From Asaia bogorensis (GTDB taxonomy: Bacteria; Pseudomonadota; Alphaproteobacteria; CACIAM-22H2), in NCBI GenBank assembly GCA_945901855.1, contig CAMDLT010000020.1, positions 2,066 to 66,065 on the forward strand: 64,000 nt of DNA, written 5' to 3'. Below the pieces are notes generated by a model, which had not been told where the DNA came from, did no database searches, and was given only the letters and a program-made list of their open reading frames with translations. Shown here piece after piece: positions 10,459-49,064 of the stretch. Positions within the stretch are counted from its first letter, which is position 1, and each line of letters opens with the position of its first letter. Both the position numbers and the translations under genes were made by a program.

Positions 10459-10461
10459 GCC

Positions 10462-12356: not shown

Positions 12357-12431
12357 AAATCGATTTTGCACCGCGCGCGGGCGGAAGGCAACTTCCCGCG
12401 CGCACAGGAACGGGATAATCTTTCTGCAGTC

Positions 12432-20468: not shown

Positions 20469-20482
20469 TTGATTGTCTCCCC

Positions 20483-20803: not shown

Positions 20804-20878
20804 GGGGGGACCCTATCGCATTGGTTTTGTTATTGGGTAAAAGGGTACACTATGCCGACATTGCAGGGCAAGTACGCC

Positions 20879-21385
20879 TTAACTGAACCATTCGACCAGC
20901 CAAAAACCCAAACCTGCATAGCTTCCGTTTGCCACGAGCGCGCCTGCGATCAAAAGCAAAATTCCATCGACAGGGTGTTTAGAAAAACTTAACCGGACGA
21001 AATACACGACCAGGGCAAGCGCCAAGGCTGCCGGCGTCGCAAGCGCCATCGCAACGCCGTTTGGAATTGGCGCTGCGCCGAATGCAGCGCAAAATCCGAG
21101 GACCAGGGCAACCCATAGCGGCCGCAGGCGCCGTGGCCCGAATGCGCCAGTTGCGAGCAGCCCTGCACCGGCCAAGCACATTCCCGCTGCCAGCGTGATC
21201 CAGCCGGACGCTCGCGGCCAGTGCGCGCCGACAGTATCGAGAACGACAAAGGCTGCGCCGAAGCCAAAGGCAAGTGTCCCTGCAGTAACGGCCAATCGTC
21301 GGCTGCCTTGCGGATCAAGCGCCTGCAAGATCAAAAAAAAGAGCGGAACAAGTGGCAACGAGATTATGCCGAAATGCATCGACAA
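20879..21385 (-). CDS. hypothetical polytopic membrane protein
   Basis: 168 aa, almost entirely hydrophobic with about 5 predicted helices and no recognisable family. It is on the same strand as fccAB and upstream of it. Confidence 0.5.
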   Translation of the reverse strand: MSMHFGIISLPLVPLFFLILQALDPQGSRRLAVTAGTLAFGFGAAFVVLDTVGAHWPRASGWITLAAGMCLAGAGLLATGAFGPRRLRPLWVALVLGFCAAFGAAPIPNGVAMALATPAALALALVVYFVRLSFSKHPVDGILLLIAGALVANGSYAGLGFWLVEWFS

Positions 21386-21496
21386 GCACTAGCCGGTGCC
21401 AGCGCAGGGCGCAAGACCGGTTCCGCGCGTTGACGGGTTGCCTGCGCAATGCCAGTGTCGCAACGTCAGTTTTTTGCTCACGAAGGGAGTCTTGAA

Positions 21497-22519
21497 ATGA
21501 TTAGAGTTGCACATTTGGCCGTGGCCGCGGCTTCGTTTGCGATGTTCGCGTCGAGTGCGGTTGCACAAGCGCCGACACCCGTCAAATTTGCGCTCGATTG
21601 GGCTCTTCAGGGCAACCATGCGGTTTTCACGATGGCGCTCGACAAAGGCCACTATAGCCGCGAAGGGCTCGCCGTTACGATGGATCGCGGCTTCGGTTCG
21701 GGCGATACGGTTACCAAGGTCGCGTCCGGGGCCTACGATATCGGTTATGCCGACCTCAACACCGTCATTCCGTTCAATGCCAATCCCGCCAATACGAACA
21801 AGATTACAGGCGTGCTGTTGGTGATGGACCAGTCGCTGGCCGCCGTCATTCTGCGCAAAGGCACGGTTGCCAATCCCAAAGGGCTCGAGGGGCTGAAGCT
21901 TGCGGCACCCGAAGCCGATGCCGGGCGCATGCTGTTTCCGGCATTTGCGCGCGCGCAGGGCATCGATCCCGCGCGCATCAATTGGCAGACCGTTACGCCG
22001 CAATTGCGCGAAACGCTGCTCGTCCAGCGCCAGGTCGATGGCGTGACCGGGTTCATCTCCACCAGCGTGTTCAACATCAAGATGGCGGGCGTGCAGCCGT
22101 CGGATCTGATGGTCTATCGCTACAACGATTTTGGCGTCGATCTGCTGGGCTCGGCGCTGATCGTCAGCCAATCCTTCGCCGAGCGCAATCCCGAGACGGT
22201 TCGCCGTTTTGTGCGCGCGTCGCTTGCGGGTGTCCGCGACGCGTTGGCCGACCCAAAAGGCGGCATGGCGCAGTTGAAGCAGCGCGACCCGCTGTTCAAT
22301 GAAGCCATTGAACTCGAGCGCTTCGAAATGGTGCGCGATCTGACGATGCTGACCGACAACGTGAAGCGCAATGGTCTGTCGGCCGTGCCGGCCGCGCGCT
22401 TGGCGGCGTCGGTGGCCACGGTCGCGGAAGCCTACAACGTCGCGGGCCGCGTCAAGCCGGAAGAGGTCTATACCGAGCGTTTCTTGCCGTCGGCGCCCGA
22501 ACGTCGCATCTCACCCTGA
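21497..22519 (+). CDS. periplasmic substrate-binding protein, NMT1/THI5 (nitrate/sulfonate/bicarbonate) type, orphan
   Basis: Trimmed to ATG 21497 after GGGAG. The signal peptide is MIRVAHLAVAAASFAMFASSAVAQA. The pattern ..VKFALDW.LQGNHA.F..A..KG.Y..EGL.V.. is typical of this SBP family. There is no adjacent permease or ATPase. Confidence 0.75.
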   Translation: MIRVAHLAVAAASFAMFASSAVAQAPTPVKFALDWALQGNHAVFTMALDKGHYSREGLAVTMDRGFGSGDTVTKVASGAYDIGYADLNTVIPFNANPANTNKITGVLLVMDQSLAAVILRKGTVANPKGLEGLKLAAPEADAGRMLFPAFARAQGIDPARINWQTVTPQLRETLLVQRQVDGVTGFISTSVFNIKMAGVQPSDLMVYRYNDFGVDLLGSALIVSQSFAERNPETVRRFVRASLAGVRDALADPKGGMAQLKQRDPLFNEAIELERFEMVRDLTMLTDNVKRNGLSAVPAARLAASVATVAEAYNVAGRVKPEEVYTERFLPSAPERRISP

Positions 22520-22563
22520 TCGGTTGGGCGGTTCCCCAAGATACTGCCGGATCGAACTGTTGT

Positions 22564-22602
22564 AACCCTGCGGCGTCGCAAGTGCGGCGATGTCGCAGGG
22601 TT
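22564..22602. terminator. 9-bp-stem hairpin between convergent genes (possible bidirectional terminator)
   Basis: AACCCTGCG (22564-22572) pairs with CGCAGGGTT (22594-22602) across a 21-nt loop. There is no clear U-tract on either strand, so the call is weak. Confidence 0.3.
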
Positions 22603-22645
22603 CGAGCGGACCAGTCGCCGCCGCCGTAGATAGCTGCCGCATATT

Positions 22646-23749
22646 TCACGTGCGTGCGGCAAGTGCCTTGAAGGCGGGAACGAATGCGCCGTGTTCGAGA
22701 TACTTCATCCCGAACAAGCCGCCGCAGACGATCGATCCAAACGCCAGCAGCGAGCCCAGCGCCAGCGTGGAGAGGCCGGTGACGCCTTGGCCAATCGTGC
22801 AGCCAAGGGCCAGTACGCCGCCCGTTCCCATCAAGGCTGCACCCGCCAGATGGCGCAGCATATCGTCGGTACCGGCAAAACTCTCGATCCGAAATTCGCG
22901 TGCCGTCTTGGCGGCGACAAATGCGCCGAACACGACACCAAATACGCTAGCCACGCCAAACCCGATTTTGGCCCCGGTCCAGGTCATCAGATAGATTAGC
23001 GTATCGCCGATCGGCGCGACAAAGGTGAACGAGGCAAGGGGTGACGGTTCGAAATCGTCGTTGCCCGCAATGCCGGTCGCGTACCAGCCCGCGACAGTCA
23101 GCAGACCGATGCCGATTCCGGCCGCAATGTTGCGCGGGCTCTTGCAAAAACTTGAATCCTTGAAGCAAACCCAAGCGAGGAAGGCGATGACAAGAACGCT
23201 TGCCGTGCGTTGTGCAAATTGAGTTTCCAGGCCGGTCGCGGTTACGATCAGCGCGGGCAAGAGTTGGGTCTGGGCACCCAGCGTTCGGAGATCGAGATTG
23301 GTCGGCTCGATCGTCGCAATTCGGCCCGCCGCGATCAAACCGCGTAAGGTCATGTAGGCGAAGAGCCCGAGCACGATCATCACCAGCAGACTTTTGAGAT
23401 TCCCCGCCCCCAATCGGACGAGCGTCTTGCTGCCGCAACCGCCTGCCAGCGTCATGCCGAAGCCGAACATGAGGCCGCCGACAATGGCGCCAAGCCAGCC
23501 GAAATTCGGCGTGGCATAGATCGTCTTGCCAAGATCGACAAGGCCAAGGGCGCCGAACGTTTGCGTGCCTGCGACGGCGACGGCGATCGCCAGCAGCCAG
23601 GCACGAAAGCGCCTGAAATCTCCCAAGAGGGCGATGTCGGAAATTGCGCCCATGGTGCAGAAGTTTGTCCGATGGGCAAGAACGCCAAACCCGATCCCGA
23701 GCCCGAAGCCCCACATCGCAACAATTTGGTGGACAGGAAGGTCGGACAT
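22646..23749 (-). CDS. YeeE/YedE-family sulfur-compound (thiosulfate) transporter
   Basis: 367 aa and polytopic. The three conserved Cys-containing motifs of the family are present (NFCTMGA, LAGGCGSK, LGCTIGQG). Confidence 0.85.
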   Translation of the reverse strand: MSDLPVHQIVAMWGFGLGIGFGVLAHRTNFCTMGAISDIALLGDFRRFRAWLLAIAVAVAGTQTFGALGLVDLGKTIYATPNFGWLGAIVGGLMFGFGMTLAGGCGSKTLVRLGAGNLKSLLVMIVLGLFAYMTLRGLIAAGRIATIEPTNLDLRTLGAQTQLLPALIVTATGLETQFAQRTASVLVIAFLAWVCFKDSSFCKSPRNIAAGIGIGLLTVAGWYATGIAGNDDFEPSPLASFTFVAPIGDTLIYLMTWTGAKIGFGVASVFGVVFGAFVAAKTAREFRIESFAGTDDMLRHLAGAALMGTGGVLALGCTIGQGVTGLSTLALGSLLAFGSIVCGGLFGMKYLEHGAFVPAFKALAART

Positions 23750-27351: not shown

Positions 27352-28026
27352 ATGTTGGAAATCAAACCAGTCGAAACGTCGGGTGGAATCGCTGTTCTGG
27401 ATGTCGGCGGCGACAAAGCGGGCCAAGCGACTCTTATTTGGGCCGACGACAATTTCTGCGAGGCGTTCGAAGGCGCGACCGTCGGCGCCGCCCCGTTCGG
27501 TGCGGACGCTGACCCGCAAGTGACGGCGGCCTTGGAGGGGTTGAAGCAGGGGGCTGTGGCACGTTTCGATGCGCCGACGGGCACGCTGTTTGGGCATCGT
27601 CTGGAAAGCGCCATCGGCATTGTCGGGCTGGGCGGCAAGCGTGTGCTGCTGGCGCTGGCAACCGCCCCGCAGATGCTGGGCCACACGGCCGATGCGCGTC
27701 TGGCCGAAACGCTCGACGCCGTGCCGGTCGCCGCGAGCATGATCAAAACGAGCGACGGGACGATTTTGTGGCTCAACGAAAATTTTCGGGAGTTGCTGGA
27801 CGGCAGCGAGTTCGATCTTCTGGGAACGTCGTTGGCCGACCATTTTGTGCTGCCCGGCGTATTTGCAACGCTGATGTCGGCAACAGACGCGATTGCGCCC
27901 TCCACGCCTGTCCCAACGCCCCTAAAGACGCTGTCCGGCATCATGACGCCGGTCGTTGCGACTGCAAAACGTATACGGTTTCGCGGTCACGACGCGGCGC
28001 TGGTGTGCCTGGCCAGCGGGTTTTAG
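27352..28026 (+). CDS. hypothetical protein with two PAS-like repeats, no output domain
   Basis: 224 aa. Two internally similar segments (..ATLIWADDNFCEAFEG.. and ..GTILWLNENFRELLDGSEFDLLGTSLADH..) resemble the N-terminal strands of PAS folds. The G/C third-position bias supports coding. Confidence 0.55.
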   Translation: MLEIKPVETSGGIAVLDVGGDKAGQATLIWADDNFCEAFEGATVGAAPFGADADPQVTAALEGLKQGAVARFDAPTGTLFGHRLESAIGIVGLGGKRVLLALATAPQMLGHTADARLAETLDAVPVAASMIKTSDGTILWLNENFRELLDGSEFDLLGTSLADHFVLPGVFATLMSATDAIAPSTPVPTPLKTLSGIMTPVVATAKRIRFRGHDAALVCLASGF

Positions 28027-28034
28027 CGCGGGTT

Positions 28035-29105
28035 CTAGATCCCGGATTTGCGCGCGGCTTCTTCGAGTTCGTCGATCATCTGCATGCCCGGGACGACCTC
28101 CGAGCGCACGAACTCGAGGCGCTTGTTGGGGCCGCCGCTGGCGGTTGGAAACCGGTCGCGCCATAGCTGCATTTTGACCGACAGCCCGCAGAGCACGCCG
28201 CCGATCGAGCGGTGGTTCGAGAACACCATATCCTTCATGCGGCTGAAGCTGTCGGCGTTGATATCTTTCCAGAAATCGGCGCTCTTGCGGTTAAAAGCTT
28301 CGAACCGGCCCGTCAACGAGATGATCACGCCCGACATCGAATCTCGGGTCTTGTCCAGCATCTGCTTGGACATGCGATCGCCCTTGATCATCTGGTTGTC
28401 GTCGAGCGGCTTGACCCAGTCGAGAAAACTTTGGACCTGGGGCACGACCTTGTCGAGGCACGAGCGGAAATAGGCCAGCGACAAAAACGTATCGCCGTAA
28501 TCTTCGAGGAAGCGCGGAATTTCGGTCAGCGGCACGTTCAGCTTTTGGGACATCATGCGCAGATTCTTGAGCGCATCGTCGCGATTGGGCGCGGTGAGCA
28601 GCTTCATGATGTCCGAAACGTCGTTCACCTCGAAATCCGCCGTGCCGTAGATCTGCTGTATCAACGGATGGGTAAACACCTTCATGTGTTGCGTAAGTTC
28701 TTGGCGTTTGCCTTCCGAAAGCTGCAATTCCTTGTTGACGTCGATATTGAGAGAGAGCGAACGCAGCGCAACGCGCAGCGTGTAGACGTCGAAAGACGGA
28801 ATGGCGCTCAGATTTTGCAGCAGCGGCATGTCCTTGCGCAGTTCGGTCGCACAGCTTTGGAAAACGCTGTGCAATGCGTCGAGGGGAACTTGCGCCGATT
28901 TGTGGCCTTGGTATTTGTAGAGTTCGACAACCGAATCGAGCCGCACGTTCTTTATGAGACGCAGCCTGCGCAACCCCGGCGTTTCGAGCGGGATAATGCT
29001 GAGGGGCAAGATATGAAGCGCATCTTGACCCTCCGCATCGTATTCGGCATTGGCAGCTTCGCCTGAAGCAGGCGTCGGACCATCGATCTTGGTGCTTTGT
29101 TCCAT
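28035..29105 (-). CDS. hypothetical cytoplasmic protein (356 aa), no recognisable domain
   Basis: Long protein-like ORF 77 nt downstream of the CheZ-like gene on the same strand. It has an acidic N-terminus, no TM segment or signal peptide, and is largely helical-looking. Confidence 0.6.
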   Translation of the reverse strand: MEQSTKIDGPTPASGEAANAEYDAEGQDALHILPLSIIPLETPGLRRLRLIKNVRLDSVVELYKYQGHKSAQVPLDALHSVFQSCATELRKDMPLLQNLSAIPSFDVYTLRVALRSLSLNIDVNKELQLSEGKRQELTQHMKVFTHPLIQQIYGTADFEVNDVSDIMKLLTAPNRDDALKNLRMMSQKLNVPLTEIPRFLEDYGDTFLSLAYFRSCLDKVVPQVQSFLDWVKPLDDNQMIKGDRMSKQMLDKTRDSMSGVIISLTGRFEAFNRKSADFWKDINADSFSRMKDMVFSNHRSIGGVLCGLSVKMQLWRDRFPTASGGPNKRLEFVRSEVVPGMQMIDELEEAARKSGI

Positions 29106-29182
29106 GTTGAGCGCTTTTTACGCCGTAAGAGCCGTCAATACCAGCCCCGATCTTGGTCTGCGGTTGTTGGCGCGTCCGCGCA

Positions 29183-30076
29183 TCAGTCGAAAAGCTTGTC
29201 AATATCCGCCTGCGACGCCGTCGCGCCAGCAGTGGCGGGCGCGGGAGAGGGCGGCGCTGGCGGCGGCGTAGCTTGTTTGGCAGCTGCCGGGGGCGGGGCG
29301 GGCGCTGGGGCGGGTGTCGGCGGTGCTATGGGTGCGGGTGCGTCAAACCCTGCACCGGCCAACAGCGCGTCGATCTCATCTTGCGTGCGGCCTTGGCCGG
29401 GCATAGCCGGTCCATTCAACAGATGCGCATCGCCGCGGGTGTCGGCATTTGCATCGCGTTTTGCAACGCCGCCCGGCAGATTCTCGGCGCCCCAAATTTC
29501 GACCATCGCGTTGACGCGCTGGTCGATATAGCGAAGCGTGCTGACGACTTTGGAGATGCGCTGGCCGGTAATATCTTGGAACGAGCAGGCCGTAAAAATC
29601 TCGGTTGCTTGGTCGCTCAGCACCTGGCCTGCTTCGGCGCATTCGGTCGGAAGATTTCCGGCAACTTCCATAATGCGCTCGGCTGCATTGAGAATATCCG
29701 AGGTCGCGCGCTCGGTCGAAGCCACGATCATGTCGAGCTCGCTGGTCGCGCTGTTGATGCGGTTGTCGGTAACGGCGAGTTTCGGGTCCTTGTTGTAGAT
29801 CGAAGCGATTTCGGATTTTGCGGCCTGGATATGGGCGGCCATGCTTTGCAATTCGGCACGCAGCACATCGATGCTCTGGGTTTCCTTGGCACTCGACATT
29901 TGCTTGATCGTCCACTCGCGGAACGAGGCGGCGATGCGCCGCGCTTCGTCGAGCGCCACTACGCGCGAGCGCACGTCGCGGGCGCGCAAGAAGGCGCGGC
30001 CGCGCGTGCTGTTCAACAGCGCGTCCTCGATGGCGAAATATTCTTCGTCCGAAAGTTCGATCTTCGTCATTGGCAA
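29183..30076 (-). CDS. cheZ: CheZ-family phospho-aspartate phosphatase with C-terminal Pro/Ala-rich extension
   Basis: 297 aa. ..ACSFQDITGQRISKV.. matches the CheZ catalytic signature (E. coli AQDFQDLTGQVIKRM). ..LLNGP.. is also conserved. ..QDEIDALLAGAGFD resembles the E. coli C-terminal CheY-binding peptide QDQVDDLLDSLGF. Confidence 0.8.
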   Translation of the reverse strand: MPMTKIELSDEEYFAIEDALLNSTRGRAFLRARDVRSRVVALDEARRIAASFREWTIKQMSSAKETQSIDVLRAELQSMAAHIQAAKSEIASIYNKDPKLAVTDNRINSATSELDMIVASTERATSDILNAAERIMEVAGNLPTECAEAGQVLSDQATEIFTACSFQDITGQRISKVVSTLRYIDQRVNAMVEIWGAENLPGGVAKRDANADTRGDAHLLNGPAMPGQGRTQDEIDALLAGAGFDAPAPIAPPTPAPAPAPPPAAAKQATPPPAPPSPAPATAGATASQADIDKLFD

Positions 30077-30134
30077 CCTGCAGATAAAAGATGTGGCGTG
30101 ACGCGCAAGCTAGTCGGAATTGGCTAAGAACGGG

Positions 30135-31277
30135 TTAAAGTTTGCCCTCGATGGCGGCTCTGAAAATTCGCTCAAGGTCGCCATGCTCGACTTTGCAGGG
30201 ATTGCCGCCTGCCGACGGATCGGCCGCCGCCATCGCCCCGATTTCGGCCGCCCGCGACGTATCGATCCCCAGCATGGCGAGCGTGGGGGGAATTTTCAAC
30301 AGGTCGCGAAACTGCAAGACCCAAGCAAAGACCGTATCGAAATCGGCGCGCGGCAAATCGAGGGAACGCGACAAGTTCGGCATACGCGCGGCGATCGCAG
30401 CGCGATTGTGGCGCATGACATAAGGCAGCAAAATAGCGTTGGTCAGACCGTGATGCGTGTCGTAGACGGCACCGATCGGATGGGCAAGCGCGTGGACGGC
30501 GCCAAGCCCCTTTTGGAAGGCGACGGCACCCATGCTGGCGGCGGCCAGCATCTGCGCGCGCGCTTCGATGTCGGCGCCGTTGGCGACAGCGCGTGGCAGA
30601 AACTCTTTCACCAGGCGCATGCCTTCGAGCGCGATGCCATCGGCCATGGGATGGAATCCGGGCGCGCAATAGGCCTCGAAGCAATGCACGAACGCGTCGA
30701 CGCCCGTCGCGGCCGTCATATGCGCAGGCAGGCCAATGCTCAGTTCCGGATCGGCGATCACGATGCCGGGCATCATTTGTGGGTGAAAAATGATTTTTTT
30801 GACGTGCGCCGCCTCGTCGGTAATGACCGAAGCACGTCCGACTTCGGAGCCCGTGCCGGCGGTTGTCGGCACCGCGACGACCGGCACCATCGCGGCCGGA
30901 TCGACGCGCTTGAAATTATCGCCGACATCCTCGAAGTCCCAGAGCGGCCGCGTCTGGCGGGCCATCAGCGCGATGGCCTTCGCCGCATCGAGGCCCGATC
31001 CGCCGCCAAACGCGATAACGCCGTCATGCGCGCCCGCGCGCAAGGCCGCGACGCCGTCGGCAACGTTGGTACCCGTCGGGTTGCCGCGGACTTTGGCAAA
31101 AAGCGTCGCGCCCGAGAGGGCCAGCGCTTTTGCTACCATCGGCGTCGATGCAAGTCCTGCATCCGTGACCAGCAGCGCATTGGCAATGTGCAGGCGCTTG
31201 AGCGCTGCGGGCAATTCGTCCAACCGACCTGGCCCCGACCAGATTGTCGTGGGGTAGTTCCAATTGCCCTTTACCAT
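30135..31277 (-). CDS. iron-containing (group III) alcohol dehydrogenase
   Basis: 380 aa. Motif GGGSGLDAAKAI and metal-ligand His pattern (..AHPIGAVYDTHHG..). Confidence 0.85.
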   Translation of the reverse strand: MVKGNWNYPTTIWSGPGRLDELPAALKRLHIANALLVTDAGLASTPMVAKALALSGATLFAKVRGNPTGTNVADGVAALRAGAHDGVIAFGGGSGLDAAKAIALMARQTRPLWDFEDVGDNFKRVDPAAMVPVVAVPTTAGTGSEVGRASVITDEAAHVKKIIFHPQMMPGIVIADPELSIGLPAHMTAATGVDAFVHCFEAYCAPGFHPMADGIALEGMRLVKEFLPRAVANGADIEARAQMLAAASMGAVAFQKGLGAVHALAHPIGAVYDTHHGLTNAILLPYVMRHNRAAIAARMPNLSRSLDLPRADFDTVFAWVLQFRDLLKIPPTLAMLGIDTSRAAEIGAMAAADPSAGGNPCKVEHGDLERIFRAAIEGKL

Positions 31278-31291
31278 CGCAGCCGCCCGCC

Positions 31292-32722
31292 TCAGATGAT
31301 TTCGAAATAGCGCTGCAGCTGCCAGTCGCTGATCGCTTTATTCGCCTCACGCTGTTCCCAGTCGCGGCTGGCGGCATAATGCGCGACGAATGGTTCGCCG
31401 AACAGGTCTTTGGCGACCGACGAGGCGGCCAATCGCGTCGCAGCTTCGCCCAACGTGCGCGGCAACTGCAATTCGGGCGGCGGAACCAGATCGTAGGCGT
31501 TGCCGACGACCGGGGCCGTCGGTTCGATCTTGTGCTCGATACCCCACAGTCCGGACCCAAGGGCCGCAGCAAGTGCGATGTAGGGATTGATATCGGCCGC
31601 GGCGACCCGGTATTCGACGCGCTGCGACTTCGGCGCGCCGGGGATTGCGCGTAGCGCCGTGGTGCGATTGTCGATGCCCCACAGCGCCGCTGTCGGGGCC
31701 CAGAAACCGGGGACAAGTCGCGTGTAGGAATTTACCGTGCAGGCCACCATGGCGAGCAACTCGGGCATCAGCTTTTGCTGGCCGCCGATGAAGTGGCGCA
31801 TCGTATCTGAAATGCCATGCGGCTTGGTTTCGTCGTGAAAGACGGGCCCACCGGCCGCGTTCTGCAGCGACAAATGCAGATGGCCCGACTGGCCCGGCCA
31901 GTCGTGCGACCATTTCGCCATGAATGTTGCCATACGATTTTGGCGTTGGGCGAAAACCTTGGCGAAGGTTTTGAACAAAGCGGCTTTGTCTGCGGCGGCG
32001 ACGATATCGTCGTAGAGCAGCGCCGCCTCGAGCACGCCCGCGCCCGTCTCGGTGTGCAGGCCTTCGATCGGCACGTCCATCGCGCGCATCGTGTCGAGCA
32101 GCGCGTGATAGAATTCCGCATGCACGGAACTGCGCAGCATCGAATAGCCAAAAGACCCGGGCGTAAGAGTCTTCAGGCCGCGATAGTTTTTCTCGCGCAC
32201 CGATACGGGCGTTTCCTCGAACACAAAGAATTCGAATTCCGCGGCTGCTTTGGCAGCAAGCCCCATGTCGGCCGCGCGCTGGACGACGCGCCGCAACGTG
32301 CCGCGCGGACAAACGGTTTCAGCCCGACCCGCAAATTCGGCCAGAAAAAGCAAGGTTGACGGCTCGAACGGGACCGCGCGGCAAGTCTCGGGCAGCACGC
32401 GAACCGGCGCGTCGGGATAGGCGGTGTGCCAGCCCGTGTATGTCGCGCAATCGTAAAGCTGGTCGTTCGAATCCCAGCCAAGCACAACGTCGCAAAATCC
32501 GAATCCGGTCTGCAGCACGGAGCGGAATTTCTCGCGCGACAGATATTTGCCGCGCATGACTCCGTCGATATCGAACAGACCGACTTTCACATTGTCGATT
32601 TTGCGCGCGTCCAGCAGGGCGGCGGCTTGTTCGGCAGTTTTGACGTCGCGGGGTCCGGTTGCGGGCTCCCGGTCGCCGGCCAGATCAGGCGGCACGGCGC
32701 AGATCCAGTCGGCTCCAGACAT
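31292..32722 (-). CDS. glutamine synthetase-family ligase (gamma-glutamyl-amine synthetase, PuuA/IpuC-like)
   Basis: About 476 aa. GS catalytic-domain collinearity (..[13 protein letters not shown].., ..[17 protein letters not shown].., ..NSYTRL.., ..WG.DNRT.ALR.., ..R.EYR....D.NPY..). The start is uncertain (32740, 32722 or GTG 32695), and all three options overlap the hemA 3' end. Confidence 0.8.
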
Positions 32723-33902
32723 CAACCAGCGCCTCGACAAGCTGATCCATCAGCCCATCGTCGTGGAAGGGGGTGGCGGTCAAACGCAGCCGTTGCGTGC
32801 CGCGCGGCACGGTCGGGAAATTGATCGGCTGGACATAGATCGATTTTCGCATCAGCAGTTCGTCGCTCGCCTGTTTGGCGAGGCGCGCGTCGCCGACGAG
32901 CAACGGCACGATGTGCGTGGCCGACGGCATCACCGGCAGTCCTGCTTGGACCAGCAACCGCTTGAGGCGTTCGGCGCGTTCGGCCAGTTTGGCGCGCGCG
33001 GCTTGGTCGCTTTTGAGATGGCGGATGGCGGCACGCGCACCGGCTGCCACGACCGGCGGCATCGAGCTCGAGAAAATGAAGCCGGGGGCCGTGCTGCGGA
33101 CAGCATCGCACAAAGCCGTCGAAGCCGCGATATAGCCGCCGACCACGCCAAAGCCCTTGGCGAGCGTGCCTTGCACAATGTCGAGGCGCGCTTGCGCGCC
33201 ATCGCGTTCGGCAATGCCGGCGCCGCGCGCGCCGTAAAGACCGACCGCATGCACTTCGTCGAGATACGTCATCGCATCGTATTTTTCGGCGAGGTCGCAA
33301 AACGCGTGGATCGGCGAAACGTCGCCGTCCATCGAATAGACGCTCTCGAACGCGATCAGCTTTGGGCGCGACGGTTCGATCGATTGGAGCTGGGCTTCGA
33401 GATCGGCCGCATCGTTGTGGCGAAAGACGAGTTTGTCCGCGCCCGAATGGCGAATGCCTTCGATCATCGAGGCGTGGTTGAGCGCATCGGACAAGATCAC
33501 GACGCCTGGCAGCAGCCGCCCGATCGCCGACAAAGCCGCCTCGTTGGCGTTGTAGCCGGAACTGAACACCAAGGCCGCCGGCTTGGCATGCAGATCGGCC
33601 AGTTCGCGCTCGAGCAAAACATGCTGGTGGTTGGTACCGGAGATGTTGCGCGTTCCGCCCGCACCGGCCCCGTTCGCGACGAGCGCCGCCTGCATGGCGG
33701 CAAGCGTGTCGGGATGCTGGCCCATGCCCAGATAGTCGTTCGAGCACCATACGACGATGTCGCGCGGTCCCTCCGGCGAATGCCAAGTCGCATGCGGAAA
33801 GGCGCCGCATTTGCGCTCGAGATCCGCAAACACGCGGTAGCGGCCTTCGGCCTTCAAAGCGCCGATGGTGTCGGAAAAATAGCGTTCATAGTCGCGTCGC
33901 AT
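32685..33902 (-). CDS. hemA: 5-aminolevulinate synthase
   Basis: 405 aa. Classic ALAS N-terminus (..[17 protein letters not shown]......[15 protein letters not shown]..) and PLP-Lys region ..[13 protein letters not shown].., collinear with alphaproteobacterial HemA. Confidence 0.9.
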
Positions 33903-33922
33903 CGCCCCAGTCCCCCGAAATG

Positions 33923-35320
33923 TCAGTCAAAAAAACCTTTGGCGCGCGCAACTTCTGCACCCTCGGCAAGGCCCTTGGCAAAGCGCGCGAACAATTCATC
34001 TATCCCCGCCTCGTCGATAATCAATGGCGGGCACACCGCCACGCGATTGTCGAAGAGGCCGCGCACCATCAGCCCGTTGGCTTCGCAGGCTTTGGCGATC
34101 AAGGGGGCGACGGCTTGGCTTGGCTCGAACATCGTCTTGGTCGTTTTGTCTTTGGCAAGCTGCAGGCTGCCAATCAGCCCCACACCCGTGGCATGACCGA
34201 CGATCGGATGGTCGGCGAGTTTTTGGAGCGCGGCTTGGAAGCGCGGCGCTACGCGCCGGACATGGCCGACGATGTCGCGCTCTTCGTAGATGGCCAGCGT
34301 TTCGAGCGCGACAGCGGCAGGCACAGGGTGAGCCGTATAGGTGTAACCGTGCCCGAAAGTACCGATCTTCGCGCTGTTGGCCTGCATGGCCGCATAGATC
34401 GGCTCTGAAATCAGCACGGCCGAGATCGGCAAGTACGCCGACGACAGCGCTTTGGCGCAGGTCAAAATATCGGGCACGATGCCGTAAGTCTGGCTGCCCC
34501 ACATGTTGCCAGTGCGCCCGAAGCCGCAAATGACCTCGTCGGCGACCAGCAAGATGCCGTATTTTTTGAGTACGGCTTGGATCTTCGGGAAATAGCCCGC
34601 GGGCGGCACGATGACGCCGCCGGCCCCCATGACGGGCTCGGCAAACATCGCAATGATGGTTTCGGGATCTTCGGCCAAAATCAGTTTTTCGAGATTTTCG
34701 GCGAGCCGCGTCGAATACTGTTCCTCGGTTTCGCCCGGCAATCCGCCGCGATAGAAATCCGGCGTTTCCGCGTAAGCGACCGGGAAGATTGGTAGGTCAA
34801 AGTCTTTTTGATTTGCCGGAAGTTTGGTGAGCGATGCGGCCGCGATCGTCACGCCGTGATATGCCTTCTCTCGGCTCAAGATTTTTTTGCGCCTGGGCGT
34901 GCCCGCCGCGTTCGCGATGTACCAAAGAATCTTGATTGCCGTGTCGTTGGCTTCCGATCCCGAGTTGGCGAAGAAGACCTTCGACATGGGCACGGGCGCA
35001 AGTTCTTTGAGCTTTTCGGCAAGTGCGATGCCCGGCTCGTGCGACTTGCCGGCGAAGATATGGTAAAACGGCAATTGCCGCATTTGCTTGTGCGCAGCAT
35101 CCGCCAGGCGCGCCTCGTCGAAGCCAAGAGAAGCGCACCACAGGCCCGCCAAGCCCTCGATATAGGTCTTGCCATTGTCGTCGACGACATAGATGCCATG
35201 GCCCTTCGCCATGATGACTGGCCCATCGCTCTCGTGGGCGCGGAGATTCGTGTAGGGATGCACGAGCGCTGCAATGTCGCGCGCTGCCAGCGAGTTGCCG
35301 CGTGGGCGTAAGTCGTTCAT
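33923..35320 (-). CDS. class-III (omega) aminotransferase
   Basis: 465 aa. Motifs ..[13 protein letters not shown].., ..[11 protein letters not shown].., ..[10 protein letters not shown].. (PLP Lys). It resembles beta-alanine/putrescine-pyruvate transaminases. Confidence 0.85.
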
Positions 35321-35586
35321 CGGTTTGATCCCCCTTGGATACCAACTCTAGCGCAGCGAATACGAAGCTGTCGCGCGTAACAATGTTCTGATATTGTTCT
35401 ATCTATTGCCTATTTGATCGGCAAATATCGTTTGATTTGCCGGCCGAACACGCTACGTAGGACGTAATCCGGCGCTCCGACTTGGCACGAAAGGTGCGTG
35501 GTCAAAGACCGGTGTTCTCCGGTTTTCGGCCGGAGAGCCTTTGGACAGACCCCCTCCCGCATTCGCGGGTGTTCACTGGAGGAAAA

Positions 35587-37194
35587 ATGAAAACCAAATC
35601 TCGTCTCGCGCAGGTAGCGTTCGCTGCCGCTGCGACCGGCGCCGTCGCCTTGGGCCTGCTGCCCGCTGCGGCCGACGCAAAAACCTTCCGCATGTCGGTT
35701 TCGGGCGACGCCAACACGATGGACCCGCATTCGCAGAATGCCGGCAACGTCACGCTGGTGCTGCGCCAAATCTACGAACCGCTCGTGCAGCGCGGCAAGA
35801 CGATGGAACTCCAGCCATCCTTGGCCGTGCGCTGGACCTTGATGGAGCCCACGCGCTGGCGCTTCAATTTGCGCCCGGACGTCAAATTCTCGAACGGCAA
35901 CGCCTTCGATGCGGACGACGTCGTCTTCTCGATCCAGCGGTCGCTGCACGAATTCTCGAACTACGGCATCTTCACCGACACGATCGCCGAGGCGCGCAAG
36001 ATCGATGCGCTGACGGTCGACATCATCACGAAGGTTCCCGATCCGGTGCTGATCGACAAGCTCACCCAAGTCTACATGATGGACAAGGAGTGGAGCGAAG
36101 CCAACAACGCCACGCGACCGCAGAACGTGCGCGGACGCGAAGACAGCTTCACCGGCCGCAACACGATGGGCACGGGTCCGTTCGTGCAGCGCAGCCGCGA
36201 GCCCGACGTTCGCACGGTGATGGTGCAGAACCCGACCTGGTGGAACAACGCAGCGCGCGAAGGCAACGTGACCGAACTCGTGTTCCAGCCGATCGCGTCG
36301 GCTGCGACGCGCACGGCCGCACTGCGTTCGGGCGAGATCGACTTCGTGCTCGACCCGCCGGTGCAGGACATCGCCCAGCTTGGCGCCGCGCCCGGCCTCA
36401 AGATCGTCTCGGGGCCCGAAGTGCGCACCATCTTCATCGCGTTCGACACCAGCCGCGACGAGCTGCTCTATTCGTCGGTCAAGGGCCGCAATCCGTTCAA
36501 GGACGTGCGCGTGCGCCTGGCCATGTACCACGCGATGAACATCGACGCGATCCACACGCGCGTGATGCGCGGCCAGTCGGTCAATACGGGTGCCCTCTAT
36601 CCCGATACGGTCACCGGCTACACCAAGACTTGGGACAAGCGCTATCCGTTCAACGTCGCCGAAGCGCGCAATCTGATGCGCCAGGCGGGATATCCGGACG
36701 GTTTCGAAATCACCTTCGACTGCCCGAACAACCGCTACATCAACGACGAGGCGATCTGCCAAGCGCTCGTCGCGATGTGGGTGCAGATCGGCGTCAAGGC
36801 GAACCTGAACGCGATGCCGCTTGCCACCTACTTCCCCAAGGTCCAGCGCGACGACACGTCGCTCTATCTGCTGGGCTGGGGCGTGCCCACGCTCGATGCG
36901 CTCTATTCGCTGCAGTCGCTGATCCGCACGCGCGACGGCCAGCCGGGCAACGGCATCTGGAACCATGGCCGCTTCTCGGATCCGGATTTCGACCGCGTCA
37001 TCGACGCGGTGAAGCTCGAAACGAACGTCGCCGCGCGCAACAAGCTTATCGACGAGTTCAACAAACTCTACCACGAGCGCGTGCCGCATCTGCCGCTGCA
37101 TCACCAGGTGATTCCGTGGGCGATGCGCTCGAACGTCGATCTCGTGCACAGCCCGCTCAACCAGCTCGAAGTCAAGTGGGTCAAGGTCAACTAG
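35587..37194 (+). CDS. ABC transporter substrate-binding protein, family 5
   Basis: Trimmed to ATG 35587 after GGAGG. It has a signal peptide (MKTKSRLAQVAFAAAATGAVALGLLPAAADA) and is collinear with family-5 SBPs. Confidence 0.85.
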   Translation: MKTKSRLAQVAFAAAATGAVALGLLPAAADAKTFRMSVSGDANTMDPHSQNAGNVTLVLRQIYEPLVQRGKTMELQPSLAVRWTLMEPTRWRFNLRPDVKFSNGNAFDADDVVFSIQRSLHEFSNYGIFTDTIAEARKIDALTVDIITKVPDPVLIDKLTQVYMMDKEWSEANNATRPQNVRGREDSFTGRNTMGTGPFVQRSREPDVRTVMVQNPTWWNNAAREGNVTELVFQPIASAATRTAALRSGEIDFVLDPPVQDIAQLGAAPGLKIVSGPEVRTIFIAFDTSRDELLYSSVKGRNPFKDVRVRLAMYHAMNIDAIHTRVMRGQSVNTGALYPDTVTGYTKTWDKRYPFNVAEARNLMRQAGYPDGFEITFDCPNNRYINDEAICQALVAMWVQIGVKANLNAMPLATYFPKVQRDDTSLYLLGWGVPTLDALYSLQSLIRTRDGQPGNGIWNHGRFSDPDFDRVIDAVKLETNVAARNKLIDEFNKLYHERVPHLPLHHQVIPWAMRSNVDLVHSPLNQLEVKWVKVN

Positions 37195-37272
37195 GATGAT
37201 CCGACCCGCCTCGGGCGCCAAGCGCGGCGCTCGAGGCGTCGTCGCCCTCGAACGCAAAACGGCATCTTCGAC

Positions 37273-38259
37273 ATGATCGCATTCATCATCCAACGTTTGC
37301 TGCAGGCCGTACTGGTCATGATGGCGGTCGGCTTCGTAGCTTTTTCGTTGTTCGCCTATGTCGGCGATCCCGTGTCAATCATGTTGGGCCAGGATTTCAC
37401 CGAAGAGGCGCGCATCCGCCTCGTGCGCGATCTTGGCCTCGATCAGCCGTTTTTCGTCCAGTATTTCAATTTTCTCGGCAAGGCGGTGCAGGGCGAATTC
37501 GGCATTTCGTACCGCTTGGCGCGCCCGGTCTCGGATTTGCTGATGGAACGCCTGCCGGCCACGCTCGAACTGTCGCTTTGCGCTGCGGTTCTGGCCTTGG
37601 CGGTCGGCGTGCCGATGGGCGTCTATACCGGCCTCAACCGCGACACTTGGTTGTCGCGGCTGATGCTGACGGTGAGCCTGGTGGGCGTGTCGTTGCCCAC
37701 CTTTCTGATCGGTATTTTGCTGATTCTGGTCTTCTCGGTGCTGCTCGGGTGGCTGCCGTCGTTCGGGCGCGGGACGACCGTGGCACTCGGCTGGTGGACA
37801 ACGGGCTTCCTGACGCCCACCGGGATCCGCGCCCTGATCCTGCCGTCGATTACGCTCGCCTTGTTCCAGATGACGCTGATCATGCGGCTGGTGCGCTCGG
37901 AGATGCTCGAGGTGCTGCGAACGGATTACATCAAATTCGCGCGGGCGCGCGGGCTATCGAACCGCGCCATCAATTTCGGCCACGCGCTCAAGAACACGCT
38001 GGTGCCTGTCATCACGATCACGGGCTTGCAGCTCGGCGGCATCATCGCCTTCGCGATCGTGACCGAAACCGTGTTCCAGTGGCCCGGCATGGGCTTCTTG
38101 TTCATCCAGTCGGTGTCGGCCGCCGACGTGCCTGTGATGGCTGCCTATCTGATTCTGATCGCGTTCTTCTTCGTTCTTATCAACCTGATTGTCGATCTGC
38201 TGTACTACGCCGTCGATCCGCGCTTGCGCATCGATCGCGGAACGGCGGGCGGCCATTGA
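37273..38259 (+). CDS. ABC transporter permease (DppB-like)
   Basis: 328 aa. Typical N-terminus MIAFIIQRLLQAVLVMMAV.. and ending ..AVDPRLRI. Confidence 0.85.
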   Translation: MIAFIIQRLLQAVLVMMAVGFVAFSLFAYVGDPVSIMLGQDFTEEARIRLVRDLGLDQPFFVQYFNFLGKAVQGEFGISYRLARPVSDLLMERLPATLELSLCAAVLALAVGVPMGVYTGLNRDTWLSRLMLTVSLVGVSLPTFLIGILLILVFSVLLGWLPSFGRGTTVALGWWTTGFLTPTGIRALILPSITLALFQMTLIMRLVRSEMLEVLRTDYIKFARARGLSNRAINFGHALKNTLVPVITITGLQLGGIIAFAIVTETVFQWPGMGFLFIQSVSAADVPVMAAYLILIAFFFVLINLIVDLLYYAVDPRLRIDRGTAGGH

Positions 38260-38276
38260 TCGGGAAGGAACCTGCA

Positions 38277-39188
38277 ATGGACGCCATTCGCCGCTTGGTC
38301 GACAGCGACATCTTCTACAGCTTCAGCAAATCGCCTGTCATCATCGTGGCGGCGATCGTGACGGTCGTCTTTTTTGCAGGCGCCGTGTTTGCGCCCTTTT
38401 TGGCGCCTCAAAACCCTTTCGATCTGCGTCAGCTCAATTTGATGGACTCCTCGCTGCCGCCCGCGTGGACCGCCGAGGGTGTCGCCAAATATCCGCTCGG
38501 CACCGACACCCAAGGGCGCGATGTTTTCTCCACCATCCTGTTCGGCAGCCGCATATCTTTGCTGGTTGGCATTCTGTCGGTCGTATTTGCGATGGTGCTT
38601 GGCATCGCGCTTGGACTGCTCGCGGGCTACATGGGCGGCACGGTTGATGCCCTGATCATGCGGGTGGCCGACGTGCAACTCTCGTTTCCCGCCATTCTGA
38701 TCGCGTTGTTGATCGACGGCGTGGCGCGCGTGGTTATCCCGCGCGAGATGCACCACGAGATAGCAATCTACGTGCTGATTTTGGCGATCGGATTTTCGGG
38801 CTGGGTTCAGTACGCGCGCACGGTGCGCGGTTCCTGCATGGTCGAGAAAAGCAAGGAATACGTGCAAGCCGCGCGCGTGATCGGCCGCCATCCGGTGGCG
38901 ATCATGCTCAAACACGTGCTGCCCAACGTGCTGGGGCCCGTGCTGGTCATTGCCACGATCCATCTGGCGCTTGCGATCATCACGGAAGCAACGCTCTCGT
39001 TCCTGGGCGTGGGCGTGCCGCCGACGGAGCCGTCGCTCGGAACGCTGATCCGCATCGGTAACAACTATCTGTTTTCGGGCGAATGGTGGATCACCGTTTT
39101 TCCGGGTCTTGCCCTCGTGATTATGGTTCTTGCGGTGAATCTGCTGGGCGACTGGCTGCGCGACGCTCTCAACCCGAAACTGCGCTAG
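38277..39188 (+). CDS. ABC transporter permease (DppC-like)
   Basis: Trimmed from ORF 37578-39188 to ATG 38277. Motifs ..PLGTDTQGRDVFS.. and the ending ..GDWLRDALNPKLR. Confidence 0.85.
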   Translation: MDAIRRLVDSDIFYSFSKSPVIIVAAIVTVVFFAGAVFAPFLAPQNPFDLRQLNLMDSSLPPAWTAEGVAKYPLGTDTQGRDVFSTILFGSRISLLVGILSVVFAMVLGIALGLLAGYMGGTVDALIMRVADVQLSFPAILIALLIDGVARVVIPREMHHEIAIYVLILAIGFSGWVQYARTVRGSCMVEKSKEYVQAARVIGRHPVAIMLKHVLPNVLGPVLVIATIHLALAIITEATLSFLGVGVPPTEPSLGTLIRIGNNYLFSGEWWITVFPGLALVIMVLAVNLLGDWLRDALNPKLR

Positions 39189-39196
39189 AGGTGGGC

Positions 39197-40195
39197 ATGC
39201 AAACGCGTTCCGATAGGCCGCTGCTGGAAGTCAAAAATCTGCGCGTCGAGTTCCCGACGCGCCGCGGCACGCTCGTGGCAGTCGACGATATCTCGTTTTC
39301 GATCGCGCCCGGCGAAGTGCTCGGCGTTGTCGGCGAATCGGGTGCCGGCAAGTCGCTGACCGGTGCCGCAATCATCGGCTTGCTCGAGCCGCCGGGCCGG
39401 ATTGCGGGCGGAGAAATTCTGCTCGACGGCCAGCGTATCGACAATCTGCCGTACGAGAAGATGCGCCGCATTCGCGGAAAAGAGATCGGTGCGGTGTTCC
39501 AGGACCCGCTGACATCGCTCAATCCGCTTTACACGGTCGGCCGCCAGATCGTCGAAACGATCATGACGCATCTCGATATGTCGGAATCTCAGGCGCGCGA
39601 TCGCGCGATCGGCCTGTTGCAAGACGTCGGCATTCCGGCCCCCGATCGCCGCATCGACCACTATCCGCATCAGTTTTCGGGCGGCATGCGCCAGCGCGTG
39701 GTGATTGCGCTGGCGTTGTGCGCCAATCCGCGCTTGATCGTCGCCGACGAGCCCACCACGGCGCTCGACGTGTCCATCCAGGCGCAGATCATCACGCTGA
39801 TCAAGCGGCTGTGCCGCGAAAACGGCACGGCGGTGATGCTGGTCACGCACGACATGGGTGTAATTGCCGAAACGGCGGACCGCGTGGCAGTCATGTATGC
39901 GGGCCGTATCGCCGAAATTGGCCCGGTGCGCGACGTGATCCAGCGCGCCAAGCATCCCTATACCGACGGGCTTATGGGCTCCATCCCGAAGCTTGGCAAT
40001 GCGCCTGCGCGCCTCGCGCAGATTGACGGCGCCATGCCGCGTTTGACGGCGATCCCCAAAGGCTGCGCGTTCAATCCGCGCTGCGCGAAAAAATTCGAAC
40101 CCTGCACGCAACTGCGCCCTGATCCGATCTCGGTCGAGGGCACCGATGTTGCGTGCTGGCTTTACGACCGGACCAAAAAGGCGGCTGCCGAATGA
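39197..40195 (+). CDS. ABC transporter ATP-binding protein (DppD/OppD-like)
   Basis: Trimmed to ATG 39197. Walker A GESGAGKS, signature FSGGMRQR, and a C-terminal oligopeptide-type extension with a Cys pattern. Confidence 0.9.
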   Translation: MQTRSDRPLLEVKNLRVEFPTRRGTLVAVDDISFSIAPGEVLGVVGESGAGKSLTGAAIIGLLEPPGRIAGGEILLDGQRIDNLPYEKMRRIRGKEIGAVFQDPLTSLNPLYTVGRQIVETIMTHLDMSESQARDRAIGLLQDVGIPAPDRRIDHYPHQFSGGMRQRVVIALALCANPRLIVADEPTTALDVSIQAQIITLIKRLCRENGTAVMLVTHDMGVIAETADRVAVMYAGRIAEIGPVRDVIQRAKHPYTDGLMGSIPKLGNAPARLAQIDGAMPRLTAIPKGCAFNPRCAKKFEPCTQLRPDPISVEGTDVACWLYDRTKKAAAE

Positions 40196-41256
40196 ACGAC
40201 CAATCCGCAAAGTCGTCGCAGACGTTGGTCGTCGCCAAGGGGCTGGCGCGCTATTTCGACGTCTCGAAGCCGTTATTGAATCGCCTGCTTGAAAAATTGC
40301 CGCGCCAGACGCTGCGCGCGGTCGACGGTGTGGATTTCACGATCGACAAAGGCGAAACGCTGTCTTTCGTGGGCGAGTCTGGCTGCGGGAAATCCACGCT
40401 GGCGCGCCTTGTCGTCGGGCTTTATCCGCCGTCGCGCGGCACGATGGAGTTCGACGGCACGGACATGGCGAAGCTCGGTTCGGCGGCGGATGCTGGCCTC
40501 ATCCGCAAGCGCTTCCAGATGATCTTTCAGGACCCCTATGCCAGCCTCAATCCGCGCTGGCGCGTCGGAAAAATTATCGCCGAACCCATCGTCGTGCACG
40601 GGCTGATGCGCGATCGGACGGAGATCCGCAAGCGTGTGGACGAGCTGTTGCGTCAGGTCGGTCTGGCGCCGGCCGACCAGGAGAAATTTCCGCACGAATT
40701 TTCCGGCGGCCAGCGCCAACGCATTTCCATCGCGCGCGCTTTGTCGTCGAACCCCGAATTCTTGGTCTGCGATGAGCCGACCTCGGCGCTCGACGTGTCG
40801 GTACAGGCGCAGATTCTGAATTTGATGAAGGATCTGCAGCGCGAGTTGGGCCTGACCTACTTGTTCATCAGCCACAATCTGGCGGTCGTCTATTACATCT
40901 CCGACCGCGTGGGCGTCATGTATCTTGGCAAGCTTGTCGAGATCGCAGACGTCAAGACGCTGTTCTCGCGCCCGGTACATCCCTACACGCGCATGCTGCT
41001 GGACGCGATTCCCGATCTCGACATGTCGGGGCGGCCGCGCACGCCGGTGGCAGGCGAAGTGCCCAACCCGATCAATCCGCCATCGGGTTGCACGTTCCAT
41101 CCGCGCTGTCCGCACGCAAACGACCGTTGCCGCGCGGAAGCGCCGGTTGCCAAACGCGTCATGACCGGTGCGGTTGTGGCGTGCCACGCGGCCGAAGAAG
41201 GGCGTTTGCCGGACGTCGTGCGCAGCGCCGCAGCGCCGCCAAACCCGCTGCAATAA
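40192..41256 (+). CDS. ABC transporter ATP-binding protein (DppF/OppF-like)
   Basis: ATG 40192 overlaps the upstream stop (ATGA). Walker A GESGCGKST and signature FSGGQRQR. Confidence 0.9.
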   Translation: MNDQSAKSSQTLVVAKGLARYFDVSKPLLNRLLEKLPRQTLRAVDGVDFTIDKGETLSFVGESGCGKSTLARLVVGLYPPSRGTMEFDGTDMAKLGSAADAGLIRKRFQMIFQDPYASLNPRWRVGKIIAEPIVVHGLMRDRTEIRKRVDELLRQVGLAPADQEKFPHEFSGGQRQRISIARALSSNPEFLVCDEPTSALDVSVQAQILNLMKDLQRELGLTYLFISHNLAVVYYISDRVGVMYLGKLVEIADVKTLFSRPVHPYTRMLLDAIPDLDMSGRPRTPVAGEVPNPINPPSGCTFHPRCPHANDRCRAEAPVAKRVMTGAVVACHAAEEGRLPDVVRSAAAPPNPLQ

Positions 41257-47390: not shown

Positions 47391-47394
47391 GGCG

Positions 47395-49063: not shown

Positions 49064-49064
49064 G

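Follow-up and report, generated by a model that had tools for sequence, protein, structure and literature searches.

Duplicated 5-aminolevulinate synthase (ALAS) genes, hemA and hemT, are found in Rhodobacter sphaeroides. Glycine-using ALAS differ at two positions from the serine-using AlmA and its homologues, with Thr and Ser/Ala in the former and Ser and Gly in the latter; these glycine-specificity sites are positions 83 and 87 of the R. capsulatus and R. sphaeroides enzymes, cALAS has Ser at position 83, and ALAS-like enzymes of altered specificity may still score as ALAS (PMC9356726). The Eto pathway of ethanolamine utilization, which runs through gamma-glutamylated intermediates, ends in glycine and glutamate (PMC9397018, PMC6529630). 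In Phaeobacter sp. MED193, an operon induced by ethanolamine contains RpiR, a gamma-glutamylglycine amidohydrolase, EtoVWX, an ethanolamine gamma-glutamylase, a gamma-glutamylacetaldehydeamide dehydrogenase and a gamma-glutamylethanolamide dehydrogenase (PMC10132767), and the structure 4UAB is that of Csal_0678 with bound ethanolamine (PMC12410723). We analyzed a 64,000-nt stretch of an assembly labelled Asaia bogorensis (GCA_945901855.1, contig CAMDLT010000020.1, positions 2,066 to 66,065), hereafter the window, in which a hemA-type ALAS gene is closely packed with a transaminase gene and two genes of Eto type. We propose, with a probability of about 50%, that this is a composite, lineage-specific operon built around an ordinary hemA, in which amine/ethanolamine salvage is co-expressed with 5-aminolevulinate (ALA) synthesis via glycine. 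All four parts come from known families; what is new with respect to the literature searched is the presence of hemA in a tight operon with the other three, together with a broad pairing of the transaminase with hemA. That literature contained no paper linking hemA with glutamine synthetase (GS)-like, iron-containing alcohol dehydrogenase (Fe-ADH) or transaminase genes.

The four genes and the intergenic region from which they would be transcribed are as follows.

33923..35320, minus strand: class-III omega-amine:pyruvate-type transaminase (AT), 465 amino acids (aa), Pfam Aminotran_3; putative first gene of the operon
32685..33902, minus strand: hemA-type ALAS, 405 aa, TIGR01821
31292..32722 (open reading frame (ORF) 31292-32740), minus strand: GS-like gamma-glutamyl-amine ligase, orthologue of ethanolamine gamma-glutamylase, Gln-synt_C
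30135..31277, minus strand: group-III Fe-ADH, orthologue of gamma-glutamylethanolamide dehydrogenase, Fe-ADH and ADH_Fe_C
35321..35586, no strand: divergent intergenic region between AT and an ATP-binding cassette (ABC) binding-protein gene, 266 nt, from public gene calls

All four minus-strand ORFs lie exactly where the initial annotation, made from the letters of the window alone, had placed them. Its gene identifications agree with Pfam, NCBIfam and structure matches, and its spacing is likewise correct: AT and ALAS are separated by 20 nt, ALAS and GS overlap, and GS and ADH are separated by 14 nt. The window lies in a metagenome contig of 181 kb (ENA ERZ27280227 k141_2550991), whose public gene calls agree with these ORFs and set the GS start at ATG 32722; counted from this codon, GS and the end of ALAS overlap by 38 nt, and counted from GTG 32695 by 11 nt. 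The GC content of third codon positions is 0.73-0.77 in all four genes (the window is 62% GC), which supports genuine coding. Promoter and terminator scans of the operon strand revealed no promoter-like or terminator-like site inside the four-gene block; hemA has no separate promoter or terminator that we could find, and its neighborhood is conserved. Judging from the spacing, a single transcript starting in the 266-nt divergent region probably covers the four genes. An Rfam scan of positions 28000-38000 (E<=1) gave two chance-level matches only, and no glycine or other riboswitch. No second ALAS, AT, GS or ADH paralogue was found within the 64-kb window, and megablast of the block against plasmids returned hemA-gene matches at about 70-73% only, with no common cluster. 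Given its recurrence in related genomes, the four-gene arrangement is beyond chance.

The ALAS scores 629.4 bits over the whole protein (TIGR01821 cutoff 338.55), and the next family, BioF, reaches 338 bits, which is under BioF's own cutoff. It matches solved structures from end to end, scoring 553 bits against ALAS 7x98 and 490 bits against the R. capsulatus enzyme, 2bwn. In motifs that align to 7x98 free of gaps, it has Lys249, the pyridoxal 5'-phosphate (PLP) lysine, in GTLAKGFG, His143 in HASMIEG and Asp215/His218 in DEVHAVG; we take these PLP-contact residues to match the R. capsulatus residue numbering. The specificity residues are Thr84 and Ser88, in GGT84RNIS88G. By these sequence tests the enzyme is predicted to be a canonical ALAS. 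Compared with alphaproteobacterial housekeeping hemA (R. capsulatus 2BWN, 7X98), the gene is alike in full-length similarity and in catalytic and specificity motifs, but it does not stand alone: a transaminase gene and amine-catabolic genes flank it at close spacing. In neighbor-joining trees, the ALAS proteins linked to this cluster form one group, on branches of ordinary length. Its sisters are the ALAS of L092/L002 (L-numbers such as L001 or L082 are codes of comparison loci from species genomes and metagenome contigs), which sit in ManC-ABC-AT-ALAS synteny without GS/ADH. The deep nodes of these trees give no resolution on a single clade for AT-linked ALAS, and only the shallower grouping is used here. 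The sister grouping, the synteny and the ordinary branch lengths together favor an ordinary hemA passed on vertically over a specialized paralogue that was acquired. Most likely, the window gene is the hemA that this lineage ordinarily uses, sharing a transcript with genes of amine salvage. Of the three options put forward in the initial annotation, a housekeeping hemA sitting in an amine operon is thus the best fit, possibly with a glycine link.

The GS-like ligase scores below the curated cutoffs for GlnA (TIGR00653, 217 versus 429), GS III (TIGR03105, 190 versus 470) and PuuA (NF045547, 190 versus 650), and does not qualify as a true GlnA, a type III GS or PuuA. Its family is strongly conserved, with about 70% identity across orders and a typical length of 455 aa. 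The window GS and its counterpart in L088 (Thalassospira) share 71.5% identity. The window Fe-ADH reaches no NCBIfam equivalog cutoff; compared over the full length with the ADHs of L088, L089 and L090, all Eto-type clusters, it shows 66%, 68% and 60% identity, respectively. The gene order of L088 is RpiR, DctQMP of the tripartite ATP-independent periplasmic (TRAP) type, GS, aldehyde dehydrogenase (ALDH), Fe-ADH and Peptidase_C26, and Aestuariispira and Rhodomicrobium have the order RpiR, (permease), GS, ALDH, Fe-ADH, (Peptidase_C26). In both gene set and order, L088 matches the ethanolamine-induced operon of MED193, and its DctP matches PDB 4UAB at 548 bits. The Eto assignment is based on this operon and its 4UAB-type binding protein because scores against 5DM3 were low: a close match had been expected, and we obtained 212 bits for the window GS and 199 bits for the canonical GS of L088. 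We presume that 5DM3 is the GS structure of Chromohalobacter salexigens, and did not use it for the assignment. From this comparison, the window GS and Fe-ADH are orthologues of the Eto ethanolamine gamma-glutamylase and gamma-glutamylethanolamide dehydrogenase. The gamma-glutamylation route for an amine or amino-alcohol suggested by the initial annotation is thereby supported and sharpened to ethanolamine, and its description of the ligase as PuuA/IpuC-like gives way to that of an ethanolamine gamma-glutamylase orthologue. An alignment of 108 GS family members contains no column that separates the ALAS-linked GS from the 99 others, and the GS pair without ALDH differs at one N-terminal position only. 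Hence, there is no sign of an altered substrate pocket.

Placed beside the Eto operons of Phaeobacter sp. MED193 (MED193_10021-10056), Chromohalobacter salexigens (Csal_0678 neighborhood) and Streptomyces coelicolor (GlnA4 cluster), the window has GS and Fe-ADH in the same relative order, and its sister genomes keep ALDH between the two. However, the window does not carry a complete Eto operon. The route is truncated, and four defining features are absent: the ALDH, the gamma-glutamylglycine amidohydrolase, the TRAP EtoVWX/permease and the RpiR regulator. The remaining pair is joined to a hemA operon, an arrangement unreported for Eto clusters in the literature searched. The E. coli Puu pathway (PuuA gamma-glutamylputrescine synthetase, PuuC ALDH, PuuD hydrolase, PuuE transaminase) and the Pseudomonas Ipu pathway for isopropylamine share the logic of gamma-glutamylating, oxidizing, hydrolyzing and transaminating. 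Unlike in these pathways, the predicted oxidation step in the window is that of an Fe-ADH on an alcohol, not of an oxidase/monooxygenase, and the transaminase has evolved separately, in association with hemA.

The transaminase reaches 696 bits for NCBIfam PRK06105 (cutoff 517), and its best solved relatives are the omega-transaminases 5ghf (531 bits) and 6g4b (510 bits) and the plant gamma-aminobutyrate transaminase POP2 (449 bits), so that it would belong to the pyruvate-dependent class-III omega-transaminase group. Similarity to 5GHF/5GHG, to the 6G4B-type 'aspartate aminotransferase family protein' and to POP2 is strong, and the hallmark of the window subfamily is its linkage to hemA and to a PotA-type ABC transporter. 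AT orthologues (55-91% identity) are located directly upstream of ALAS in many genomes. An ALAS-centred scan of species genomes found AT orthologues of 55-59% identity just upstream in Pelagibius, Magnetospirillum moscoviense and an uncultured Rhodospirillales metagenome-assembled genome (MAG); in L004 the orthologue lies 3.6 kb upstream of ALAS. In an AT-centred scan of metagenome contigs, at least 80 loci were obtained (56-75% identity), and the 57 with at least 1.5 kb downstream were informative. Among the matches listed, ALAS is the next same-strand gene after AT in 19 of the 57 and is the commonest neighbor, with an AT-ALAS gap of mostly 100-280 nt; short-chain dehydrogenases/reductases (SDRs), AphA-like proteins and AMP-binding enzymes are other recurring neighbors. 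AT is followed by a PotA-type ABC gene without ALAS in at least seven loci (L125, L143, L147, L149, L152, L154, L161), and such loci often also carry an AphA_like (PF14557) protein. The order AT-ALAS-PotA-type ABC transporter (TIGR01187 above cutoff) is present in L092/L093, whose ALAS is 71% identical, and in Pelagibius.

The transaminase belongs with hemA and not with GS/ADH; it is an older and widespread partner of hemA and of the PotA-type ABC transporter. Of the single route that the initial annotation had drawn through the three genes around hemA, the GS/ADH part stands as an Eto pair, while the transaminase falls outside it. The premise that alphaproteobacterial hemA is normally a stand-alone gene likewise fails for many Rhodospirillales-like genomes, in which the transaminase-hemA pairing is widespread. 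Two further observations concern the same loci. The seven loci with AT followed by PotA, listed with L092 10231-15280, make up an apparent AT/PotA amine-uptake/transamination module. A gene for a thioredoxin-like and NHL-repeat protein (493-530 aa) lies upstream of AT/ALAS in L060 (3622-5103), L004 (467-1948) and L014 (4984-6576); these three Rhodospirillales-type loci differ in other respects, and the shared gene suggests that the synteny is old.

Gene order in relatives, which the initial annotation had proposed to check, is conserved in L082, L084, L086/L087, L091, L094, L174 and L175, and partly in L001, where the contig ends; the arrangement is found in at least eight related metagenome genomes. 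Among these loci, L082 comes from GCA_020248985.1, L174 from GCA_027532905.1 and L091 from the 4.45-Mb contig ERZ25074234 ctg13298_67x_l. L082 has AT-ALAS-GS-ADH-CheZ, L174 and L175 have AT-ALAS-small ORF-GS-ADH-CheZ, L084 and L091 have AT-ALAS-small ORF-GS-ALDH-ADH-CheZ, and L086/L087 and L094 have AT-ALAS-GS-ALDH-ADH. The nearest labelled MAGs are those of Telmatospirillum sp., Magnetospirillum sp. and Tagaea sp., and the carriers are a small group of uncultured Rhodospirillales-like bacteria. The dN/dS ratio between the window and its relatives is 0.07-0.20 for all four genes, at a near-saturated dS of about 0.7-1.4. All four genes are under purifying selection, and GS and ADH therefore stayed under selection after the loss of ALDH in the window's sub-clade. 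The AT-ALAS spacing in this sub-clade, among the closest relatives, is 13-24 nt.

The overlap of ALAS and GS has a traceable origin. In relatives, GS is 455 aa long and begins MNPRSVKTAE; in the window the corresponding ATG reads ACC (32640-32722), and the start is either GTG 32695 or ATG 32722, both within the 3' end of ALAS, which adds 12-21 N-terminal residues. An ORF of 176-186 aa lies between ALAS and GS in relatives, often overlapping the ALAS stop (L175 9208-9768; L174 9232-9762; L091 10215-10763; L084 7399-7947; L001 8215-8766). Its product matches no Pfam family and resembles a lipoprotein in its signal, with an LSGC lipobox in L091; the L175 and L091 versions share 30% identity. This small ORF is deleted in the window and in L082. 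The deletion and the loss of the native GS start identify the ALAS/GS overlap as a recent deletion scar, one that would give translational coupling.

Comparison across these loci shows the operon as the probable union of two older units, an ABC-AT-hemA block and a GS-ALDH-ADH module from an Eto operon. Like the gene identities, the Eto orthology, the conservation and the purifying selection, this assembly history is drawn from sequence comparison. An amine module of omega-transaminase and Pot-type importer would have come first, and hemA would then have come to lie within it. The place taken by the Eto genes in the window is occupied, in sister lineages, by a polyamine-type ABC transporter downstream of hemA. 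In one lineage, Eto-derived GS-ALDH-ADH would have replaced this importer, and reduction would have followed: the window's sub-clade presumably lost ALDH, and the window itself the small lipoprotein gene and the native GS start codon.

In the operon so formed, a transcript from the 266-nt divergent region would read through AT, ALAS, the GS-like ligase and the Fe-ADH. ALAS, as assigned from its sequence, would condense glycine and succinyl-CoA to 5-aminolevulinate for haem. By orthology, the GS-like ligase would attach the gamma-carboxyl of glutamate to ethanolamine in an ATP-driven reaction, and the Fe-ADH would oxidize gamma-glutamylethanolamide, giving the gamma-glutamyl aldehyde. For the ALDH and amidohydrolase steps, the route would draw on genes located elsewhere in the genome. 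The least certain and weakest step is the last one, in which the Eto route would yield glycine, the co-substrate of ALAS, and co-expression would follow from this; an ethanolamine-to-glycine supply for ALAS is plausible. If the link is functional, haem-precursor synthesis would be transcriptionally tied to amine/ethanolamine salvage, and hence to glycine supply. Such a tie of hemA control to amine salvage is not described in the literature searched.

Several results weigh against a composite operon of this kind. No homologue of ALDH (PF00171) is present in the 64-kb window (tblastn E<1e-5), nor are homologues of Peptidase_C26, DctP or RpiR, and a Pfam search of the other large ORFs in the window gave no FGase-type amidohydrolase, Eat transporter or other substitute. 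The amidohydrolase is present in no ALAS-linked cluster examined, so that local glycine release is not encoded. The GS substrate is assigned from orthology, the evidence for co-transcription is the spacing, and the glycine logic leaves the transaminase without an assigned role. Finally, the AT-ALAS gaps of 100-280 nt elsewhere leave room for a separate hemA promoter, so the adjacency may be historical.

Such a historical origin is possible, though we lean against it: hemA may have landed in an amine-catabolic operon whose downstream transporter was later swapped for Eto genes, with a shared transcript and no metabolic link. The AT-PotA loci without ALAS fit this sequence of events, as does the same module with ALAS inserted in L092, L108, L120, L122, L137, L164 and L017. 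The thioredoxin-NHL synteny of L060, L004 and L014 suggests an inherited block, the wide spacing of most AT-ALAS pairs permits an own hemA promoter, and the Eto module of the window is truncated and has no regulator. However, ALAS is the top neighbor of AT among the matches listed despite ALAS identities of 55-66% and differing flanks. A pairing that persists across such diverged ALAS and flanks exceeds the usual unselected synteny. Moreover, GS and ADH stayed under purifying selection after ALDH was lost, and the AT-ALAS spacing has tightened in the window's sub-clade. Should there be no functional link, the locus would still be a clear example of operon remodelling, in which part of a catabolic module took the place of a transporter and genes were then lost step by step. 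It is unlikely, on the other hand, that the operon serves ALA turnover, with AT as a bacterial L-alanine:4,5-dioxovalerate (ALA:pyruvate) aminotransferase, the AT-hemA pair as the signature of a Shemin succinate-glycine cycle or of an ALA overflow/homeostasis valve, and the Eto genes feeding glycine. In its favor are the wide distribution of the transaminase-hemA pair and the membership of AT in a pyruvate-dependent omega-amino-acid/amine group, ALA being an omega-amino acid; AGXT2, which has this activity in animals, is an aminotransferase too. ALA:dioxovalerate activity and a possible succinate-glycine cycle have been reported in Rhodopseudomonas spheroides and Rhodospirillum rubrum, and the cycle has been proposed for R. 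rubrum, but the same review notes a lack of evidence that ALA has any significant fate outside tetrapyrroles (PMC13564367). The AT subfamily would be assigned to this activity by resemblance, and the same AT also occurs with PotA-type transporters, SDRs and AphA-like regulators without ALAS, which fits general amine catabolism. Set against the Shemin cycle and AGXT2, ALAS and the aminotransferase would give the first two steps; the likeness is one of resemblance, and the window encodes no dioxovalerate dehydrogenase or other dioxovalerate-oxidizing enzyme. The pairing of the transaminase with hemA across diverse alphaproteobacterial metagenome lineages nevertheless offers a candidate gene for the old question of the ALA transaminase and the succinate-glycine cycle.

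The two remaining options of the initial annotation, a specialized ALAS paralogue and an aminoketone pathway, can be weighed together, and both are disfavored. It is very improbable that the gene encodes a specialized second ALAS or an ALAS-like enzyme whose aminoketone product is transaminated, gamma-glutamylated and reduced to a secondary metabolite. Like hemA/hemT, cALAS and AlmA, the window has an ALAS-family gene within a multi-gene cluster. The tight packing of four genes without a regulator would suit such a pathway, the loss of ALDH in the sub-clade would suit a secondary-alcohol/ketone substrate, and a high ALAS score is compatible with altered specificity (PMC9356726). However, Thr84/Ser88 are the ALAS states and not the Ser/Gly of AlmA or the Ser83 of cALAS, the syntenic position is conserved and common to lineages without GS/ADH, and branch lengths are normal, as expected of a vertically inherited locus. 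The neighbors include no amide synthetase, acyl-CoA ligase or exporter of the C5N/alaremycin type or other partner genes as in cALAS and AlmA clusters, and no GS substitution sets this lineage apart from ordinary Eto-type GS, which argues against an aminoketone substrate. A C5N-unit/alaremycin-type cluster was rejected, as the ALAS has Thr84 rather than Ser and the neighboring gene calls include no amide synthetase/acyl-CoA ligase or AlmB/C-type partner.

The composite operon is flanked on one side by a divergently transcribed importer and on the other by a CheZ-like gene.

35587..41256, plus strand: divergent Opp/Dpp-type ABC importer (Pfam, NCBIfam, gene calls)
35587-37194, plus strand: family-5 binding protein of the importer
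37273-38259 and 38277-39188, plus strand: importer permeases
39197-40195 and 40192-41256, plus strand: importer ATPases
29183..30070, minus strand: CheZ-like gene (Pfam CheZ, 59 bits), 64 nt downstream of ADH

The region 35321..35586 is the probable promoter/operator region of both divergent units. Conserved blocks AAATCAA..TTTG and a GAAC-N7/8-GAAC direct repeat upstream of AT are common to the window (35380-35460), L082, L086, L001, L091 and L084, and an imperfect 19-nt inverted repeat is located at 35408-35453. These blocks and the inverted repeat are possible operator sites; no regulator gene adjoins the region. Within 35321..35586 there is neither a match to the sigma-70 consensus nor an Rfam match. 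Nearly all carriers of the cluster also have the divergent Opp/Dpp-type system, and an importer of this type adjoins AT-ALAS in L082, L084, L086, L091, L092, L094, L098, L174 and L175. No substrate could be assigned to the binding protein, which has weak non-specific matches only to NCBIfam (NikA, GsiB and DppA, about 115-120 bits) and to PDB (5u4o and HbpA, 115-141 bits). In L092 (6008-7009) and L093 (6167-7009), the family-5 binding gene of the importer adjoining AT-ALAS is in fragments (calls of 101-154 aa) and looks like a pseudogene, judging from these calls. In L084 and L091 the binding-protein gene of the importer is not adjacent to the permease genes.

On the other side, the CheZ-like gene follows ADH in L082, L084, L091, L174 and L175, and PfkB/KduI genes take its place in L086/L087 (Tagaea MAGs); it is probably outside the metabolic unit. 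Beyond it, positions 27352-29105 hold two ORFs, one of 356 aa without a family match and one of 224 aa that matches PAS weakly. The order of the CheZ-like gene and these two ORFs is kept in L082, L084, L091, L174 and L175, and adjoins CheW/CheA genes in L084 and L091.

Other parts of the window carry further metabolic genes. A family-III CoA-transferase (49029-50258), a formate-tetrahydrofolate ligase (FTHFS; 56521-58179) and an adjoining thiamine pyrophosphate enzyme (58181-59869) resemble an oxalate/formate set (frc/oxc-like and FTHFS). A third family-5 binding protein is encoded at 45738-47699. Positions 412-13646 contain three mandelate racemase/enolase-superfamily genes around a second Opp/Dpp-type ABC system; one of the three, an 821-aa ORF, carries the superfamily domain in its C-terminal half. 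A sulfur-related set at 19164-23749 comprises a flavocytochrome c sulfide dehydrogenase flavoprotein (19164-20492), a Sulf_transp membrane protein (22646-23749) and, according to the public gene calls of the source contig, a TusA-like gene.

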